From: Candidatus Latescibacterota bacterium
GTDB lineage: Bacteria > Latescibacterota > UBA2968 > GCA-2709665
Length of the DNA stretch: 64,000 nucleotides
Assembly (NCBI GenBank): GCA_965248435.1
Contig: OZ252100.1
Location: forward strand, 2,048,001-2,112,000
Reading direction: 5' to 3'
Made by a program: the position numbers and the translations under genes. Below are positions 16,631 through 25,782 of the stretch, in pieces (positions within the stretch are counted from its first letter, which is position 1; each line of letters starts with the position of its first letter). A model generated the notes under the pieces. The model was not told the DNA's origin and searched no databases. It saw nothing but the letters and a program-made list of their open reading frames with translations.

Positions 16631-17233
16631 TCAATGGGACCCGGGAAAGGGACAGTGATAGGGAATCGTGAGGAAGTCAGCGACGGCCTGGTCGCCCAGA
16701 TTGACAGGATCGCCCTTCTCCAAACGTTGTGTGATATTCGATCCGCAAATATTGAACGCGTCGACAAGCTTTGGGATGTCGCCGTCGAATAGGACGTTAT
16801 CGGGATTCCAGTCCATTCCGGCGAAGTAGGGAAGATTGTCAGCCTGCCGAAGCCCTTTTCTAAGAATGCAACCGAGCTGGTCTATTTCGGGGTCTGCTGT
16901 CTTGTCTTCCTCCAGCGTAGCCTTCAGCACGTCAAGGAACCCCTGCTGCTTTTCCCTCTCACGTTTGAAATACCTGGGCGTCTCGACAACAAAGCCATTT
17001 CGCTGCAACGAGATTATGGACCGGATTTGTGGCAGATTCGTATGTGGGTTTTCTCTGCATAGTCTTGCAAATATGAGGTAGGCGGGATCGAACGGGGTGA
17101 GCTTGACGACATGGTCTGCATGAGGCGTCAGGAAGACGAGAGACCAGTCACCAGAGGCGAGCTGCGTGTATCCAGCATCAAGGAAAGCATATGCCGCCTG
17201 CCGGTAAGTTAGTGACTCAAGATCCAATATCAT
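16631..17233 (-). CDS. Hypothetical kinase-like protein
   Basis: VVKL, DWNPDNVLF, LVDAF resemble kinase/phosphotransferase motifs. Confidence 0.5.
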   Translation of the reverse strand: MILDLESLTYRQAAYAFLDAGYTQLASGDWSLVFLTPHADHVVKLTPFDPAYLIFARLCRENPHTNLPQIRSIISLQRNGFVVETPRYFKREREKQQGFLDVLKATLEEDKTADPEIDQLGCILRKGLRQADNLPYFAGMDWNPDNVLFDGDIPKLVDAFNICGSNITQRLEKGDPVNLGDQAVADFLTIPYHCPFPGSH

Positions 17234-17282
17234 AACGTCCGGAATCTCGTGATAAATAGGATTTCAGGGAGGGCATTTCCTA

Positions 17283-17417
17283 TAACGTTCTCGCGGGCTG
17301 CGAACCTGCCAAGCTGGCGTGGCGCTTGCAATCAACGTCTATCAAAGCAAGCGCCGTGACAGCGACAGGCAGGTTGGGCGAAGTGGCGAATGCCACGAGC
17401 CGCAGCCCGTCGTGTTA
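17283..17417. repeat. attC-like site, long variant
   Basis: Family ends plus the inserted hairpin. Confidence 0.92.
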
Positions 17418-17444
17418 TGCGCTTGTGCTGCGAATGCGTGTCCG

Positions 17445-18242
17445 TTAGAAGGGAATGCGCAGCCCATCATATGCCATTTTGAGCCCTGGATTCTCCCTGA
17501 GAACGTCGGTGCGCCTGTCCTCGTCGAATCCTGCAATTAGTGCCCCGTCCCTCCAACTGTGAAAAGACATGTGTGTCAGGATACACTCTCTGCTTCCTAT
17601 CTCCTTCCAGACTTCGATCGCTCCCGCGATATCAAGGTTGTGCCAACCTTCTGCATCAAGCTCATCCATTGTAGCCTCCAGAATGAGCAAGTCCACACCG
17701 CTAAGTAACTCTAATGTGTCATCCGGCGGCCGGACGCCATCGCCCAGATAGGCGATTCGTCGCTTACCCTCAATGATGAAACCAACACTATCTTTGAAAT
17801 GAGACGTCTTGACCGGAATATAGCGCAGTAAGCCAATATTCAAGGTCATCCCTGCTTCAATCACACGTAAATCGCAGGTTTTCTTCATATAACTCAGTTC
17901 CTGCTCCAAATGGACCAATCCCGACGCAGGAGTGTATAATGGGAGCTTTTCCCATTTGTGAATAAATGCGGCTTCGTGAAACTCCCCAAGCCCCGCGATG
18001 TGGTCAAAATGCCAGTGAGTGATGAGGATCGCATCCACCTTCTGGATTGACTCCCTTTCAAGCTGTTCGGCTATGTCGGGTCCCGCATCGATAAGTGTCG
18101 TCTGGCTATCTATGATTGCAAGAGCAGATCGCGTTCGTCTAGCAATGGCACCTTGGCGAGTTGCCTCGCAAATGGCGCAGGAGCAATGAAAGGAAGGGAG
18201 CCGCAGGGCAGCAGCAGTTCCAAGGAAGGCTATCTCAGGCAA
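17445..18242 (-). CDS. MBL-fold metallohydrolase (PhnP-like)
   Basis: FLGT, CSCAIC, IDAGPD, THWHFDH. Confidence 0.9.
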   Translation of the reverse strand: MPEIAFLGTAAALRLPSFHCSCAICEATRQGAIARRTRSALAIIDSQTTLIDAGPDIAEQLERESIQKVDAILITHWHFDHIAGLGEFHEAAFIHKWEKLPLYTPASGLVHLEQELSYMKKTCDLRVIEAGMTLNIGLLRYIPVKTSHFKDSVGFIIEGKRRIAYLGDGVRPPDDTLELLSGVDLLILEATMDELDAEGWHNLDIAGAIEVWKEIGSRECILTHMSFHSWRDGALIAGFDEDRRTDVLRENPGLKMAYDGLRIPF

Positions 18243-18319
18243 GTCAAATTCCTTTAGTCATTCCGCAGTTGAGGCTCGCAGCACTGCGCATTGTATCTTG
18301 AAAATATGATCTATTTGTA

Positions 18320-18490
18320 GATTATCTTGGTTCGAAGAAGACCTCTGGGGAGGCCGGATTGCGCATGAAGGCATTGACCTTGGACGTTAGATAGGCCCCC
18401 CGCCTTCTTGGCCCATGCCGAGGAGTATCCGAGACCCGAGAGTCTGTATCACAAGGCTGGTAGGCCAGGTGCAAGGTCGGGGGACCAGAG
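18320..18490 (+). ncRNA. Predicted IS110 bridge RNA (boundaries approximate)
   Basis: Two stem-enclosed loops. ATTGCGCAT (18358-18366) and ACGTTAG (18384-18390) match the target; GGAGTATC (18422-18429) and ACAAG (18451-18455) match the donor. Confidence 0.8.
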
Positions 18491-18513
18491 GTACAAATAA
18501 GGAGGGAGAGATC

Positions 18514-19506
18514 ATGAAGCAAGAGAATCTGTTGGGGGTAGATGTCTCAGCCCGGGAGCTGGTGGTCGCGATCCGTCGCTCAGGGAAAGCGTATCCACTG
18601 GCAAGATTTCCCAACACAGGCGAAGGGCACCGTCGATTGATCAAGTGGGCGACAAAGTGGGGAAAGCCGGCTCGAGTGGGAGTCGAGGCCACAGGCATCT
18701 ATAGTTTTGAGGTGGCGTTGGCGTTGTATCGGCATCCGAAGACTCAGGTGATGGTAATCAACCCCAGAGCGCTGAGGAATTTCTCTCAGGCTTTGATGAA
18801 ACGGGGGAAAACCGACCCGATCGATGCGGAAGTGGCATTGGAGTATGTGCAGCGGATGCCCTTCCAGACGTGGCAGGCACCCCGTGATGAAGTACTTGAC
18901 CTGCAGGCGATTACACGCCGGATCGCGCAGATCAAAGTCGAGATCAACCGGGAAGGAAACCGGCTTCACGCTTCCACGCAACGCCCATCGGTCGCGTCTG
19001 CGGTCGCCTTGGACATCGAAGAGCATGTTGAACATCTCAAAGCGCGTGTGCAGCAGCTGAAAGCGCGGGCTCTGGAGCTCATTGAGGGGGAAGCCACTCT
19101 GCGCGAGAAGTTCGCGCGATTGACTTCCGTTCACGGGATCGCAGCAACCAGCGCGATGGGCATTCTGGCAGAGATTTCGATGTTGCCTGCCGACATGAAG
19201 CCTGCCCAATGGGTGGCCTACGCAGGCCTGGATCCACGACCCCACGAATCGGGAGACACGATTCAGAAGCGCCGAGTGATCTCCAAAGCGGGGAATAAGT
19301 ACTTACGAACCGCCTTATATATGCCAGCGCTGGTGGCCATTCAACAGCAGCCCAATGTGAAGGCGTTCTACGAAAAACTCATCAGTCGAGGCAAGAAGCC
19401 CATGCAGGGGGTCATCGCGGTGATGCGAAAGCTGCTTCACTCCATCTGGGGTATTCTCCAACACAACCAGGACTTCGACGGAGAAAAGTTCTACAAAATG
19501 GCTTGA
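18514..19506 (+). CDS. IS110 family DEDD recombinase
   Basis: GVDVS, VEATG, KTDPIDA, ESG, ISKAGNKYLR, AVMRKL; RBS GGAGG before ATG 18514. Confidence 0.95.
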   Translation: MKQENLLGVDVSARELVVAIRRSGKAYPLARFPNTGEGHRRLIKWATKWGKPARVGVEATGIYSFEVALALYRHPKTQVMVINPRALRNFSQALMKRGKTDPIDAEVALEYVQRMPFQTWQAPRDEVLDLQAITRRIAQIKVEINREGNRLHASTQRPSVASAVALDIEEHVEHLKARVQQLKARALELIEGEATLREKFARLTSVHGIAATSAMGILAEISMLPADMKPAQWVAYAGLDPRPHESGDTIQKRRVISKAGNKYLRTALYMPALVAIQQQPNVKAFYEKLISRGKKPMQGVIAVMRKLLHSIWGILQHNQDFDGEKFYKMA

Positions 19507-19522
19507 CCACCAAGAGAGTATC

Positions 19523-19609
19523 TAACGTTCCCGCCACTTGCGAACCCGCCCCCAGGCGGGTTGCCGCAGGCCAAGGCGCGGATGCGCCGCAGCGCAAGTG
19601 GACGTGTTA
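19523..19609. repeat. attC-like site (IS110 target)
   Basis: TAAC GTTCC CG CCACTTGCG...CGCAAGTGG A CG T GTTA. Confidence 0.9.
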
Positions 19610-19678
19610 TGGGCTTGTGCCAGTTTGGAATTGGGCAAGAACATACAGTGGACGGCTATTACCTAGATTCCCAGGTCT

Positions 19679-20560
19679 TTAGTCGAACCTCTTCTGATAA
19701 CCACTGGCTTGGAGAAATTGTTCGAAGTCGTCAATGATAAGCATATTTCGGACTGCCTGACTCTTGTCAGAAGTAAGGTGATAGTACGATTCACAGATCT
19801 TGTAACCAATGAAGTACCCAAGATCGGCTGGGCGGCCCTTTGCCTTATCCGCATTGTATAGCCAATCGCTATGATCATTTCCGTTCATCTTCTCACGAAA
19901 GTCAATCCATAACTCACGCTCATGTAAGTTGCCATACTCATGGATATGTTCGTTGATATGTATGCCTGCAACAAGCTCTCCCAAGAAATCCGCTGAGCCT
20001 TCATCGATTGACTTCCTAAGAAGTGTCATCTCACCGTTTGGAAATCTCTGCTGACAATGAATCAGTTCGTGCATGACGATAAACGGAATGTCTTCCACTG
20101 GCTTTAAGACCTGTTTGTGCCAGTCACCCAGTTCTTCAAGAGGCGTCTCCCGCGTCCTGCCGTACATCTCCGCCCCGATTAAGAGGCCATTGTCCGAGGT
20201 TGTGCCTCCAGTGCGCATCCTTCCAATCACGAAAAAGACATCTGGAAACACCGAATCAGGATAGAGATGGTTCAACCTTAGGAAGTAGCTCCTAATTTCG
20301 TCCGTCATTTCGGCGATCCGAAGCGTACTCTCTCTCACTGATCGATAATAGCCAGGATGATGATCAATCGCTTTGACCAGGGCTTCGGGATTCTCAATGC
20401 GCATTCTGATGAAGTCTTCGAGTCCCTTCGTCCCCTTGTCGAGATACTCCGTCGCGAAGATCCGGATGCGCTCTTCACCTGTCACATCCCGTGCTAAGTC
20501 AAAAGCCCTCCAGAAATTATCGATGTCTGAAGTGATAAGTCGTGCTTCATCAGATTCCAT
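19679..20560 (-). CDS. Putative Zn-dependent protease (DUF2268-like)
   Basis: HELIH, EGSADF, DLGYFIGY. Confidence 0.75.
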   Translation of the reverse strand: MESDEARLITSDIDNFWRAFDLARDVTGEERIRIFATEYLDKGTKGLEDFIRMRIENPEALVKAIDHHPGYYRSVRESTLRIAEMTDEIRSYFLRLNHLYPDSVFPDVFFVIGRMRTGGTTSDNGLLIGAEMYGRTRETPLEELGDWHKQVLKPVEDIPFIVMHELIHCQQRFPNGEMTLLRKSIDEGSADFLGELVAGIHINEHIHEYGNLHERELWIDFREKMNGNDHSDWLYNADKAKGRPADLGYFIGYKICESYYHLTSDKSQAVRNMLIIDDFEQFLQASGYQKRFD

Positions 20561-20631
20561 TGTATGATCCTAGCCTGTCTGCCTTTGTCCCACTCTCAGT
20601 TTCGCTTTGGCTCCAAAACTGGCATGGCCCA

Positions 20632-20769
20632 TAACGTTCTCGCGGGCTGCGAACCTGCCAAGCTGGCGCGGCGCTTGCCACCCACGATTGTCTTAAGCAA
20701 GCGCCGTGACAGCGATAGGCAGGTTAGGCCGGAGGCGCAAATGCGCCGGAGCCGCAGCCCGGCGTGTTA
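20632..20769. repeat. attC-like site, long variant
   Basis: Family ends plus the inserted hairpin. Confidence 0.92.
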
Positions 20770-20808
20770 GCCGCAGTCGATTGAATTCACTACTACAACC
20801 GTAGGCCG

Positions 20809-21213
20809 TTACAGGGGAGCAGCATGATCAGCCTCTGTAAGACTGACGATCTCGAATCTCGTACCCTCGGGGCCTCGAAAGAATACTGCATAGTAGTCAC
20901 CACCATATTCAGGACACTCCTCCGGTCCATCGGTAATCACGATGCTTCGATCTTCCGCCCAGACCGCAAATCTATCGACCTCCTCCCGGCTGCGCGCTGT
21001 GAACGCAAGGTGCTGGAGGGCCCCCGGAGGTGAGCCAGACTCCACATCTTTCAAATAGATGCGTGATCCTCTGCCCTTCCAGCCCGCGAGGGCTTCATGA
21101 GTTTTCTCCTTAGTCATACCGAGAAAGCCAACCAACAACTCGTCGAAAAACGCCTCAGCCTCTGCTGGCTCCTGAAGTCCGAGTCCGATATGGTGAATCA
21201 CAGAATTTATCAT
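20809..21213 (-). CDS. VOC family protein
   Basis: IHHIGL, HLAF, YYAVFFRGPEG. Confidence 0.88.
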   Translation of the reverse strand: MINSVIHHIGLGLQEPAEAEAFFDELLVGFLGMTKEKTHEALAGWKGRGSRIYLKDVESGSPPGALQHLAFTARSREEVDRFAVWAEDRSIVITDGPEECPEYGGDYYAVFFRGPEGTRFEIVSLTEADHAAPL

Positions 21214-22742: not shown

Positions 22743-23933
22743 TCAAGCTACGGCAACATGTGCCGGAGGCGCTCGCAGAGGCGCGAGGGTTCCGACTGTG
22801 AGCATAGGGCCTCCGCACTGCGCACAGACCTGAAGATCGATGCCTGTTACCCGGAACAGAAGGTCCTGCCAGGTCGCCTTTGTGGCTGCGGAAGCCGTCG
22901 TGCATACAGTGCCCAGGAGCCTACGGCATCGTGCGAGCTTTTTCCGGCGACCCCGATTGCTGAGCAGTCCGTAGTGCCGGATCTTCACGAAGCCATCCGG
23001 CAGGATGTGAAGCAGGAACCGCCGGATGAACTCGTAGGCATCGACGGTCATCAGCTTCCGTCGGTTGCCGGCCTGGCGGTCCCGGTAGTGGAATGAGACC
23101 CGGTCGCCCTCACAGGCGACCAGCCGGTGGTTGGAGATGGCGATCCGGTGCGTGTATCGTCCCAGATAGGCCACGATGCGTTCTGGACCCGCAAAAGTCG
23201 GCTTGACGTAAACGGTCCATTCCCTCTGGTAAAGACCCCGAAGCAGATCGAAGAACGCATCTTCCAGTGGAGCACTCAATCCCGGGAACGCCAGAAGGCC
23301 TTCCTGGTGCGCGTCCTTCAGGAACGCAAGGAACTTCCCCCGGAACAGTCGGGACAGAACTTTTACGGGTAGAAAGAAGCCCCGTCGCGCCGCCTTCCAT
23401 TCCTGACCGTCGTGGGTCAGCCCACCTCCAGTTACGATACAGTGCAGATGCGGGTGGTCGATGAGTGTCTGAGACCACGTATGAAGCACGGCGGTAAAGC
23501 CGATCTGCGCTCCAAGATACTTCCGTTCCCGCGCCAGCTCCAGAAGACTCTGCGATGCGGCTTTAAACACCAGGTTGTAGATCAGCTTCTGGTTCCGCAG
23601 AGCAAGCGGCCGCAGGGGCTCGGGCAACGTGAAGACGACGTGGAAGTATGGGATCGGAAGGAGATCCTCTTTACGAGCGTCGATCCATCGTTCGGTCGTC
23701 AGGAACTGGCACTTCGTACAGTGCCGGTTGCGGCAGGAGTTGTAGGCGATCCGCTTCGTTCCGCACTGCCCGCACACTTCCACGTGTCCGCCCAGCGCAG
23801 CTGTTCGGCAGATCTGGATGGCTCGCATGGCCCGCTTCTGCCGAAGCGGCATGTGATCACCGTAGTGTGCTTGATACCCATCTCCGTGGACTCGGAAGAT
23901 GTCGGCGACTTCGAGAGGCTGTGACATGGCCAA
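22743..23933 (-). CDS. IS91-family (Y2 HUH) transposase with Zn-binding domain
   Basis: CRTAALGG...CGQC...SCRNRHCTKC, HPHLH, YLGRY, FVKIRHYG. Confidence 0.93.
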   Translation of the reverse strand: MAMSQPLEVADIFRVHGDGYQAHYGDHMPLRQKRAMRAIQICRTAALGGHVEVCGQCGTKRIAYNSCRNRHCTKCQFLTTERWIDARKEDLLPIPYFHVVFTLPEPLRPLALRNQKLIYNLVFKAASQSLLELARERKYLGAQIGFTAVLHTWSQTLIDHPHLHCIVTGGGLTHDGQEWKAARRGFFLPVKVLSRLFRGKFLAFLKDAHQEGLLAFPGLSAPLEDAFFDLLRGLYQREWTVYVKPTFAGPERIVAYLGRYTHRIAISNHRLVACEGDRVSFHYRDRQAGNRRKLMTVDAYEFIRRFLLHILPDGFVKIRHYGLLSNRGRRKKLARCRRLLGTVCTTASAATKATWQDLLFRVTGIDLQVCAQCGGPMLTVGTLAPLRAPPAHVAVA

Positions 23934-23939
23934 CCTCTG

Positions 23940-24791
23940 CTACAAGGTCGGCTTGTCTTCATCTCCCAAAAGGTCCAGGGGGCTTCTGATACGCGTGAGA
24001 TCGCGAGTGGTGACGTGGAGGTAGACGGTGGTGGTTCGCAGGCTCGTGTGACCCAACAGTTGTTGGACGAAACGGACGTCCACTCCGTTGTCCAGAAGAT
24101 GTGTGGCGAAGCTGTGACGCAGAGAATGGACACTCGCACGCTTTTGTATCTCGGCGCGTCGGCAGGCCTGCTCGAAGACTTTCTGGACACTGCGGGCGTG
24201 GAGCGGTGCATCCGGTCTTTCGCCAGGGAACAGCCAATCGCGAGGCTGGTAGCTGCGCCAGTAGACGCGGAGTGCCTTTAACGCCTCCTGGGCCAGAAGC
24301 GTCTCTCGCTCTTTTTGGCCTTTGCCCCGCACACGGATCAGCATCCGGTCACTGTCGATATCGGAAAGCTTTAGCCCGATGGCCTCACTCAGTCTGAGCC
24401 CACCAGAGTAAATGACCATCAGCAGCGTACGGTGTTTCAGGTTGTTGGTCCTGTCGATCAGCCGCTGCACTTCCTCTGTGGAGAGTACCACCGGGAGCTT
24501 CTTTGCCTTCTTCGCACGAGGGATGCCCCACTCGACCCAGTCACGCTTCAACGTCGTTTGGAACAGAAACTTCAGTCCGCTGTATACCTGGTTGACATAG
24601 CTTTGGGACAGCTTCCGCTCAGTGATCAGATAGTGCAGATAGGCGCGGATCTCTTCTTCGCTGAGCCGGTCGGGCGGTGTCTTGCAGTAACGACACAGCC
24701 CGGCCACTCCGCTCACGTACGCCTTCTGCGTATCCGGATCTAAACCTTTCAACTGCATGTCCCGGATCATTCGCTTCCGATGCTTGGTCAT
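23940..24791 (-). CDS. Tyrosine recombinase, IntI-related but lacking the IntI-specific insertion
   Basis: LPVVLS, GLRLSE, GKGQKER, HSLRHSFATHLL, LLGH, TTVY, SPLD; only a short segment between WLFP and box II. Confidence 0.92.
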   Translation of the reverse strand: MTKHRKRMIRDMQLKGLDPDTQKAYVSGVAGLCRYCKTPPDRLSEEEIRAYLHYLITERKLSQSYVNQVYSGLKFLFQTTLKRDWVEWGIPRAKKAKKLPVVLSTEEVQRLIDRTNNLKHRTLLMVIYSGGLRLSEAIGLKLSDIDSDRMLIRVRGKGQKERETLLAQEALKALRVYWRSYQPRDWLFPGERPDAPLHARSVQKVFEQACRRAEIQKRASVHSLRHSFATHLLDNGVDVRFVQQLLGHTSLRTTTVYLHVTTRDLTRIRSPLDLLGDEDKPTL

Positions 24792-25664: not shown

Positions 25665-25700
25665 TCAGGAGCTCTCCTCTTGTATCTAGTGCCTTGCGCA

Positions 25701-25782
25701 TAACGGTCCCGCCGTGCGCGAACCGCCGCAGGCAAGTTAGGTCGGAGGCCCGAAAGGGCCGAAGCCGCAGCCCGGCGTGTTA
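25701..25782. repeat. attC-like site (arms mismatched)
   Basis: TAAC GGTCC CG CCGTGCGCG...CGCAGCCCGG CG T GTTA. Confidence 0.85.

Follow-up and report, generated by a model that had tools for sequence, protein, structure and literature searches.

The insertion sequence and its recombinase

The DNA described here is a window of 64,000 nucleotides (nt), comprising positions 2,048,001 to 2,112,000 of contig OZ252100.1 (assembly GCA_965248435.1) from a Candidatus Latescibacterota bacterium; all positions below are counted from the first letter of the window. Within a cassette array of this window lies an insertion sequence (IS) of the IS110 group, with a recombinase gene, a long non-coding left end, and an attC (the recombination site of an integron) that it interrupts. 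It is very probable that this is an active IS621-like (IS110-group) element that carries a bridge RNA and targets attC R' ends. The element and its immediate surroundings consist of the following features.

18292-19523, + strand: IS110-group insertion sequence, 1232 bp, TGTATC...GAGTAT-CT, right-hand core copy counted
18514-19506, + strand: recombinase gene, 330 amino acids, with the ribosome-binding site AAGGAGG upstream and matches in Pfam, NCBIfam and PDB
18283-18291, + strand: left target ACTGCGC and target core AT, the distal half of the attC R' box and first bases of the metallo-beta-lactamase (MBL)-fold cassette
19524-19530, + strand: right target AACGTTC, the R' GTT triplet and start of L', identical in all three genomic copies
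19524-19614, - strand: attC of the upstream cassette, R'' GCCCATAAC...L''...L'...AACGTT, from which the IS separates off the distal bases of R'

The left junction reads ...TCGCAGCACTGCGCAT|TGTATCTTG (in longer form ...TCGCAGCACTGCGCAT|TGTATCTTGAAAAT), the first IS base being 18292; the right junction reads ...AGAGAGTATCT|AACGTTCCCGCC (in longer form ...CCAAGAGAGTATCT|AACGTTCCCGCC), CT occupying 19522-19523 and AACGTT 19524-19529. The left border was placed at the point of divergence of three copies, one remnant, and contigs of other sequencing runs, and the right border at the ...GAGTAT-CT end, which is conserved throughout the family and followed by lineage-specific flanks. A preliminary description of this DNA had given the junction strings correctly but had set the right end at 19520; the correct end is 19523. 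The non-coding left end measures 222 nt (18292-18513), and the right end, all that remains after the stop codon, 17 nt (19507-19523); the guide RNA model matches upstream of the recombinase gene. No inverted repeats, terminal or subterminal, were found, as none of the 12 inverted pairs in the IS links both ends. Judged by its sequence against the published layouts of the two groups (PMC11208160; PMC11187229), the element has the layout of the IS110 group and not of the IS1111 group.

The predicted recombinase contains the domains PF01548 (DEDD_Tnp_IS110) and PF02371 (Transposase_20) and matches the NCBIfam model NF033542 ("IS110 family RNA-guided transposase") with 200.5 bits against a cut-off of 140. 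Residues 5-325 align with the transposases of ISCro4 (PDB 9t56, E 2.9e-40) and IS621 (PDB 8wt6, E 2.1e-38), at scores of 135-141 bits that mark a distant lineage. D10, E58, D101, D104, and S246 stand in register with the active-site residues named for IS621 (PMC11208158); 20 homologs all have D10, E58, D101, and S246-G247, and nearly all have D104. A total of 1989 homologs were found, the best of them, apart from the protein itself, at 70% identity; in plasmid records identity is at most 47% and mostly 31% or less.

A predicted two-loop RNA in the left end

The left end contains the elements of a predicted bridge RNA.

18337-18491, + strand: bridge RNA core, comprising outer stem, target-binding loop and donor-binding loop (covariance model R1, 148.7 bits, E 7.6e-40)
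18347-18401, + strand: target-binding loop, with closing stem GGGGAGGCC (18347-18355)/GGCCCCCC (18394-18401)
18368-18371 and 18378-18381, + strand: inner hairpin of the target loop, AAGG/CCTT
18407-18469, + strand: donor-binding loop, with closing stem CUUGGCC/GGCCAGG
18432-18435 and 18442-18445, + strand: inner hairpin of the donor loop, AGAC/GUCU

Relatives were taken from a genome scan that found 538 loci, of which the best 80 were kept. Among these best 80 loci, the 42 distinct upstream regions are conserved in sequence and have only two hypervariable patches, which are proposed to be the target guides; the two-loop RNA is conserved upstream of recombinases 51-70% identical. RNAalifold, applied to 22 sequences, gave 24 pairs that make up the outer stem, the target loop, and the donor loop, each loop with its closing stem and inner hairpin. 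A covariance model built from that alignment found 35 matches in 36 sources, with none in L053, which contains Ns. In 33 distinct rows, 96.7% of cells were paired, compared with 86.2% in shuffles and 31-58% when the partners were slid; the alignment used for these counts was fitted to the covariance model, a bias in the model's favor. Compensatory changes on both sides occur at 15 of the 24 consensus pairs in these rows, and in donor-loop helices 5 and 7 every pair (9/9) has changed on both sides. The covariation of the structure bears out the two-loop layout that had been suggested for the left end; together with the covariation of guides and flanks described next, it supports the view that the left end is a bridge RNA.

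Target guides and flanking DNA

The target-binding loop contains two putative guides.

18358-18366, + strand: left target guide AUUGCGC and core AU, hypervariable in relatives, where it tracks the left flank
18382-18393, + strand: right target guide GGACGUU, core complement AG and handshake AUA, complementary to TATCT-AACGT(T)C of the right junction

The left guide, ATTGCGCAT (18358-18366), is identical to the left flank, ACTGCGCAT (18283-18291), at eight of nine positions, and ACGTTAG (18384-18390) is the reverse complement of CTAACGT. The right guide pairs with AACGTTC at every site of the IS, with one G:T pair. All motifs named in the preliminary description lie where it had placed them, and the hypervariable patches of the relatives coincide exactly with its two target guides.

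Guides and flanks were parsed in 77 of 83 loci, six being missed by the search pattern; with L078-L080 (left end mis-detected) and L040 (a contig without flanks) dropped before counting, the set comprised 73 copies in 23 guide lineages. With the core excluded, left guides match their own left flanks at a mean of 4.30 of 7 positions and those of other lineages at 2.25; for right guides the corresponding values are 4.75 and 2.67. Taking one copy per lineage, 224 of 322 non-core guide-flank positions match, and none of 20000 permutations (mean 117.9, sd 9.8, maximum 165) reached that number. Elements with the guide CUCGCCU-CU occupy heptamer repeats of the CTCGCCT type, for example, and those with the guide CCCCU-CU occupy sites after CCCCT-CT. 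The nearest relative for which DNA is available (L086, 70% identity) is the sister of this IS in the recombinase tree (support 99/98); its left guide AUUGCGU-GU stands beside the flank ATTGCAT-GT, and its right guide GAACGUU-AG predicts AACGTTC. The core in the left guide is AU in the element described here and GU in L086, its first base varying with the target in this small clade; all other relatives have CU.

Two related lineages are present in high copy (L026-L052 and L056-L085, from two Latescibacterota metagenome-assembled genome records, with 17 and 23 fetched copies). Both insert into tandem heptamer repeats, of the CTCGCCT or CCCCTCT type, and solo TTGTATCTTCGG...hairpin units occur near them. 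In L073 (around 2470-2520) a right end is followed by a 7 nt target and then by another left end, an arrangement of tandem copies.

Donor guides and the joined ends

The second loop and the two IS ends contain a further set of predicted features, the two promoter hexamers being readings of the sequence.

18422-18429, + strand: left donor guide GGAGUAUC, facing the conserved end GAGTAT-CT (IS right end AGAGTATC-T)
18446-18457, + strand: right donor guide GUAUCACAAG and handshake GC, pairing discontiguously with CT-TGTAT of the left end
19503-19508, + strand: -35 hexamer TTGACC in the right end, overlapping the stop codon
18294-18299, + strand: -10 hexamer TATCTT in the left end

A match between the second loop and the donor junction had been claimed, and it is upheld both by the presence of GGAGTATC at 18422-18429 and ACAAG at 18451-18455 within the donor loop and by a compensatory case, L019, in which the end reads GAAAAC-CT and the guide GGAAAACC. 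Discontiguous pairing of the right donor guide has been described for IS621 (PMC11208160). The AUA that follows the AG of the right target guide is complementary to TAT of the donor end, and the GC that follows the right donor guide complements positions 6-7 of the target, which are also GC in the window copy; the handshake guides of IS621 occupy these same positions (PMC11208158).

When the IS ends are joined in silico, TTGACC and TATCTT are separated by a spacer of 17 nt, and the arrangement TTGACx, 17 nt, TATNTT is found in 16 of the 16 lineages listed. The integrated IS contains one weak promoter-like site only, no more than expected by chance. In one relative (L013, around 2490-2560), a duplication of approximately 44 nt covers the -35 hexamer and the right end. 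Contigs of four runs contained neither a 19523-18292 circle junction nor an empty-site bridge, and contigs cannot show absence. A single contig of run X6 (depth 2) joins 19537 to 18289, that is, 14 nt of right flank followed by CAT and the IS left end; the cause could be a pair of copies spaced by 17 nt or an error of assembly, and the join is not a circle junction.

Insertion sites in cassette arrays

A search of the genome with the IS gave five matches: three full copies (100, 100, and 98% identity), a 256-bp left-end remnant, and a 26-nt fragment. The flanks of the full copies read ACTGCGC-AT|IS|AACGTTCC, ATGGCTC-AT|IS|AACGTTCC, and ATTGCAT-CT|IS|AACGTTCT. All three lie at ...NT|AACGTTC, in one orientation, at attC R' ends within cassette arrays. 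Contigs of other studies (X5 and X6; X7) hold an IS approximately 98% identical, the likeness beginning at 18291 and extending as far as 19530 and 19534; on its left the IS is flanked there by GTAGCGT-CT and ATAGCCG-CT. Copies elsewhere had been regarded as a means of exposing unrelated targets, and the outcome is uniform: three of three genomic copies are at attC ends, and AACGTTC follows the IS in both of the two near-identical copies on X5 and X7 contigs.

There is no target duplication; the core dinucleotide stands at both junctions. The right-hand core is CT in every copy and the left-hand core AT, AT, and CT, the second base being T everywhere. The combination of AT on the left with CT on the right in two of three copies fits top-strand cleavage after the core. 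In IS621 top strands are cut after the core, and AT, GT, and TT cores still support recombination (PMC11208158).

The sites themselves have the folds of attC. The flank hairpin at 19524-19614 has a z score of -4.5, and the flanks of the three copies range from -3.6 to -4.5; a neighboring intact attC (17262-17428), folded as single-stranded DNA, forms one long imperfect hairpin (z -5.2), with TAAC paired to GTTA. Matches to the pattern TAACGTTYBC number 69 genome-wide, 14 of them in the window; the attC-like sites form about eight clusters, and unoccupied pattern sites read ...NT|AACGTTC.... The R' consensus of attC is GTTRRRY; the R' box here reads GTTATGC or GTTATAG, a slight departure. Between 14.9 and 24.8 kb every open reading frame (ORF) taken as a gene is on the minus strand, including four with Pfam or NCBIfam matches, and the plus-strand ORFs listed there are short and overlap minus-strand genes. 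From the fold of the sites and the direction of these cassette genes, the AACGTT end is the 3' (R') end of each attC. The IS thus separates the GTT triplet from the remainder of the R' box; its orientation is antisense to the cassettes, and it ends 49 nt short of the MBL-fold gene, on the side of the start codon. Integron integrases usually cross over at G|TT, so the IS lies 2 bp inside the downstream cassette.

Removal of the IS was said to restore ACTGCGC-AT-AACGT and the inverted repeat of the MBL-fold cassette. This proved correct: GTTATGCGCTTGTGCTGCGA at 17414-17433 matches the restored TCGCAGCACTGCGCAT+AAC in inverted orientation, and the two form the R''/R' pair of that cassette's own attC. 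A further unoccupied match that had been reported, TTGCGCATAACG at 25694-25705, is likewise an attC end:

25693-25708, + strand: unoccupied attC R' end CTTGCGC-AT|AACGGTC, scoring 13/16 against the guides

Six nt upstream of this site, TTGTATCT (25681-25688) reproduces the beginning of the IS left end, preceded by a single T; 7-mer matches of this type are expected approximately eight times by chance per 64 kb, and the occurrence may mean nothing.

Specificity within the genome

The guides were scored strictly, as identity to a 16-nt guide composite, over 11.3 million genome positions, among which attC ends account for some tens of sites; an independent downstream pattern served to flag sites as attC-like. 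At a score of at least 13/16 there are 42 genome sites, 11 of them flagged as attC-like and two more attC-like by eye; at 12/16 there are 356, of which 20 are flagged. The ends of attC are hugely enriched among the best guide matches.

Several results count against an attC-directed bridge RNA as the full account of the element. The single-sequence minimum free energy (MFE) of the whole left end is no better than that of shuffles (z -0.67), although the target loop does appear in the fold obtained; it is the relatives that support the structure. No Rfam family corresponds to the RNA; at E up to 10, the region 17000-21000 yielded a chance microRNA match and nothing else. The left guide matches its own left targets at 6, 5, and 5 of 7 positions in the three genomic copies, and at 4 of 7 for each of the X5 and X7 flanks (manual count); the idea of an RNA programmed against the site is accordingly exact for the right guide but approximate for the left (6, 5, 5, 4, and 4 of 7). 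About 28 non-attC sites score at least 13/16, equaling or exceeding two of the three occupied ones, yet all of them are empty. If G:U/G:T wobble is accepted, the scan becomes far too permissive to be specific: 771 sites score at least 14/16, 14 of them flagged as attC-like among the matches listed. Given the roughly 28 equally good but empty sites, evenly counted complementarity is not a full explanation of the exclusive use of attC; greater weight on the core-proximal right target, or another determinant, is needed. On the other strand, the R'' end of the attC (17414 region) starts with AACAC and not AACGT, which would explain the use of one end and one orientation only.

The incomplete discrimination obtained by counting mismatches would also be expected if the protein or the folded attC chose the site, as for group IIC-attC introns, and the RNA matches were incidental; all insertion sites are at the foot of long imperfect palindromes. 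The guides of relatives nevertheless change with their flanks, including targets that are not hairpins, such as the heptamer repeats, and the RNA is both necessary and sufficient to direct the homologous IS621 to its site (PMC11208160), which leaves site choice by protein or fold very improbable. A crude inverted-repeat score of the flanks was not discriminating (18-19 for the element's own sites, control mean 14), and terminal AAC/GTT pairing was almost never seen in MFE folds, even for attC sites of this genome. Of 385 matches to a loose attC pattern, most were not attC, and only the top ranks were used, by eye.

Targets in the wider clade

Right targets starting with AACG are found in 13 of 24 relatives with a visible flank, scattered over the recombinase tree. 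Their right flanks fold as long hairpins (z -1.0 to -5.8; 13 of 17 at -2.1 or below), and lineages with other targets give mostly -0.3 to -2.6, with L023 (-3.7) and L022 (-5.7) as exceptions. The flanks of L007, L019, and L054/L055 are attC-like by eye. These sequences provide a lead that the clade may often target attC-like hairpins.

The same distribution lends some weight to a different reading, in which the element is RNA-guided and not specialized on attC: an AACG-start hairpin would be the ancestral target of the clade, the association with attC would be inherited, and the left guide, which matches only 4-6 of 7 positions, would bear no more than a loose resemblance to a GC-rich consensus. 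AACG-start targets do occur across the tree, mostly with hairpin flanks. However, AUUGCGC-AU is close to the consensus of the left sides of attC in the element's own genome, the guide core AU/GU differs from the CU of the relatives and agrees with the NT cores of attC sites, and relatives with other guides occupy quite different sequences. An inherited target of this kind is unlikely, though it deserves more consideration than site choice by protein or fold.

A search of 40 related genomes with the RNA model gave full matches in four only, and remnants in a genome of the same genus; a metagenome scan gave a single locus. One genome (G034) contains 60 matches to the RNA model. Remnants consist either of the left end with the first codons or of the donor loop with a broken gene. 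The remnant in the element's own genome (L004, C1:4835981-4836236) is truncated and has the guide variant GCGCUU, and the same-genus genome (G001) holds only truncated remnants of the IS family (L091 and L103). A guide polymorphism between hosts, T18360G (AUUGCGC to AUGGCGC), is present in all covering contigs of X5, X6, and X7.

Neighboring genes

The cassettes that flank the IS encode an MBL-fold hydrolase (17445-18242, - strand; PF12706), which need not be a beta-lactamase, and a GldB-like/DUF2268 protein (19679-20560, - strand). No protein in the genome scores above the TIGR02249 cut-off for integron integrase; the cassette arrays may lack an integrase or hold a divergent one. Inside the array, at 22743-24791 (- strand), an IS91-family transposase (NF033538, 449.6 bits) adjoins a 283/314-amino-acid tyrosine recombinase of the XerA/integron-integrase type that falls below every curated cut-off. 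The pair occurs in six copies in the genome, three of them beside arrays that hold a copy of the IS110 element.

Proposed mechanism and significance

The observed anatomy of the element, the covariation of its RNA and of guides with flanks, the positions of its insertions, and the conservation of its catalytic residues can be drawn together in a scheme in which RNA expression, circle formation, and chemistry are inferred. In the excised circle, the right-end -35 and left-end -10 hexamers would form a sigma-70-type promoter driving a bridge RNA of approximately 155 nt and the recombinase gene. The left guide AUUGCGC-AU would pair with the bottom strand of ...ATTGCGC-AT and the right guide GGACGUU-AG with the top strand of AACGTTC, while the donor-binding loop would hold the IS's own joined ends, GAGTAT-CT-TGTAT. 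The DEDD/Ser recombinase would then exchange strands directly 3' of the core dinucleotide. Since NT|AACGTTC with a GC-rich left side is an attC R' end, the IS would land in attC, always antisense to the cassettes; the match of the guide RNA to this recombination end explains the positions of the copies. Programming of the core would be split, with the left guide following the first core base of the target (AU; GU in L086) and the donor keeping CT, and the AT...CT junctions would record strand exchange 3' of the core.

The element is a natural, multi-copy case of an IS110-group member whose bridge RNA reveals its target, and indicates that integron recombination sites are used by at least two separate branches of the IS110 superfamily. 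By replacing the distal R' bases, the IS may freeze or polarize cassettes in environmental arrays; any such effect on cassette mobility or expression is a prediction. For the engineering of bridge recombinases, the family alignment supplies roughly two dozen natural pairings of guide and target on a single scaffold, including a non-CT target core and variants of the handshake bases.

Comparison with known systems

The two-loop logic of the bridge RNAs of IS110 elements has been published (PMC11208160; PMC11208158). The element resembles IS621 and ISCro4 in the full-length alignment of the recombinase, with catalytic residues in register, and in the location of its RNA in a long left end. It also shares with them two loops having left and right guides, a core within the guides, discontiguous donor pairing, handshake bases, a CT donor core, and a predicted promoter across the circle junction. 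It differs from them as a distant lineage with an attC R' target and a left-guide core of AU, not CU, and in having AT on the left and CT on the right in two of three insertions.

RNA-guided targeting of attC has been published for the IS1111-family elements ISKpn4, ISPst6, and ISPa25 (PMC11187229), which reduces the novelty of the idea; the preliminary description had noted that some IS1111-group elements target attC. The RNAs of ISKpn4 and ISPst6 match both target strands (PMC11187229). The IS1111-attC elements (ISPa21, ISPst6, ISKpn4, and ISPa25, with their seekRNAs) belong to the IS110 superfamily and show site- and orientation-specific insertion into attC. Their family of targets and antisense orientation (PMC3001079) are the points in favor of placing the present element within that group (ISPa21, ISPst6, and ISKpn4). 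In IS1111-attC elements, however, the RNA is downstream of the gene and subterminal inverted repeats are present, whereas here the RNA and the long non-coding region are upstream, the right end is 17 nt long, and no such repeats were found. The best PDB relatives are IS621 and ISCro4, and plasmid records reach at most 47% identity, mostly 31% or less. Insertion is at the 3' (R') end, while that group has been reported, in one secondary passage (PMC3001079), near the 5' end of attC. Membership of the IS1111-attC group is therefore the least probable of the alternatives considered, and can be given hardly any credence.

ISEc21, an IS110-family element with a seekRNA, is similar in having an upstream non-coding region in which the bottom-strand match lies 5' of the top-strand match; it differs in targeting sites inside IS3-family transposase genes and in its larger recombinase (358 amino acids). 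Group IIC-attC introns also insert into attC antisense to the cassettes, but as retroelements, equipped with a ribozyme and a reverse transcriptase, they move by an unrelated mechanism. No upstream-RNA, IS621-like element at attC was found in the literature consulted; the target motifs of natural IS110s supplementary to PMC11208160 and the supplementary figures of PMC11187229 may already include this lineage.

Both the mechanism, shared with IS621, and the target family, shared with the IS1111-attC group, were already known. This lineage could act at the other end of attC, R', where crossover takes place, within cassette arrays on the chromosomes of uncultured bacteria from the environment. 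We judge as evenly balanced the broader proposition that this is an undescribed IS621-like lineage with an upstream RNA, which has converged with the IS1111-attC elements on attC and combines split-core programming with repeated retargeting between attC and non-attC sites.

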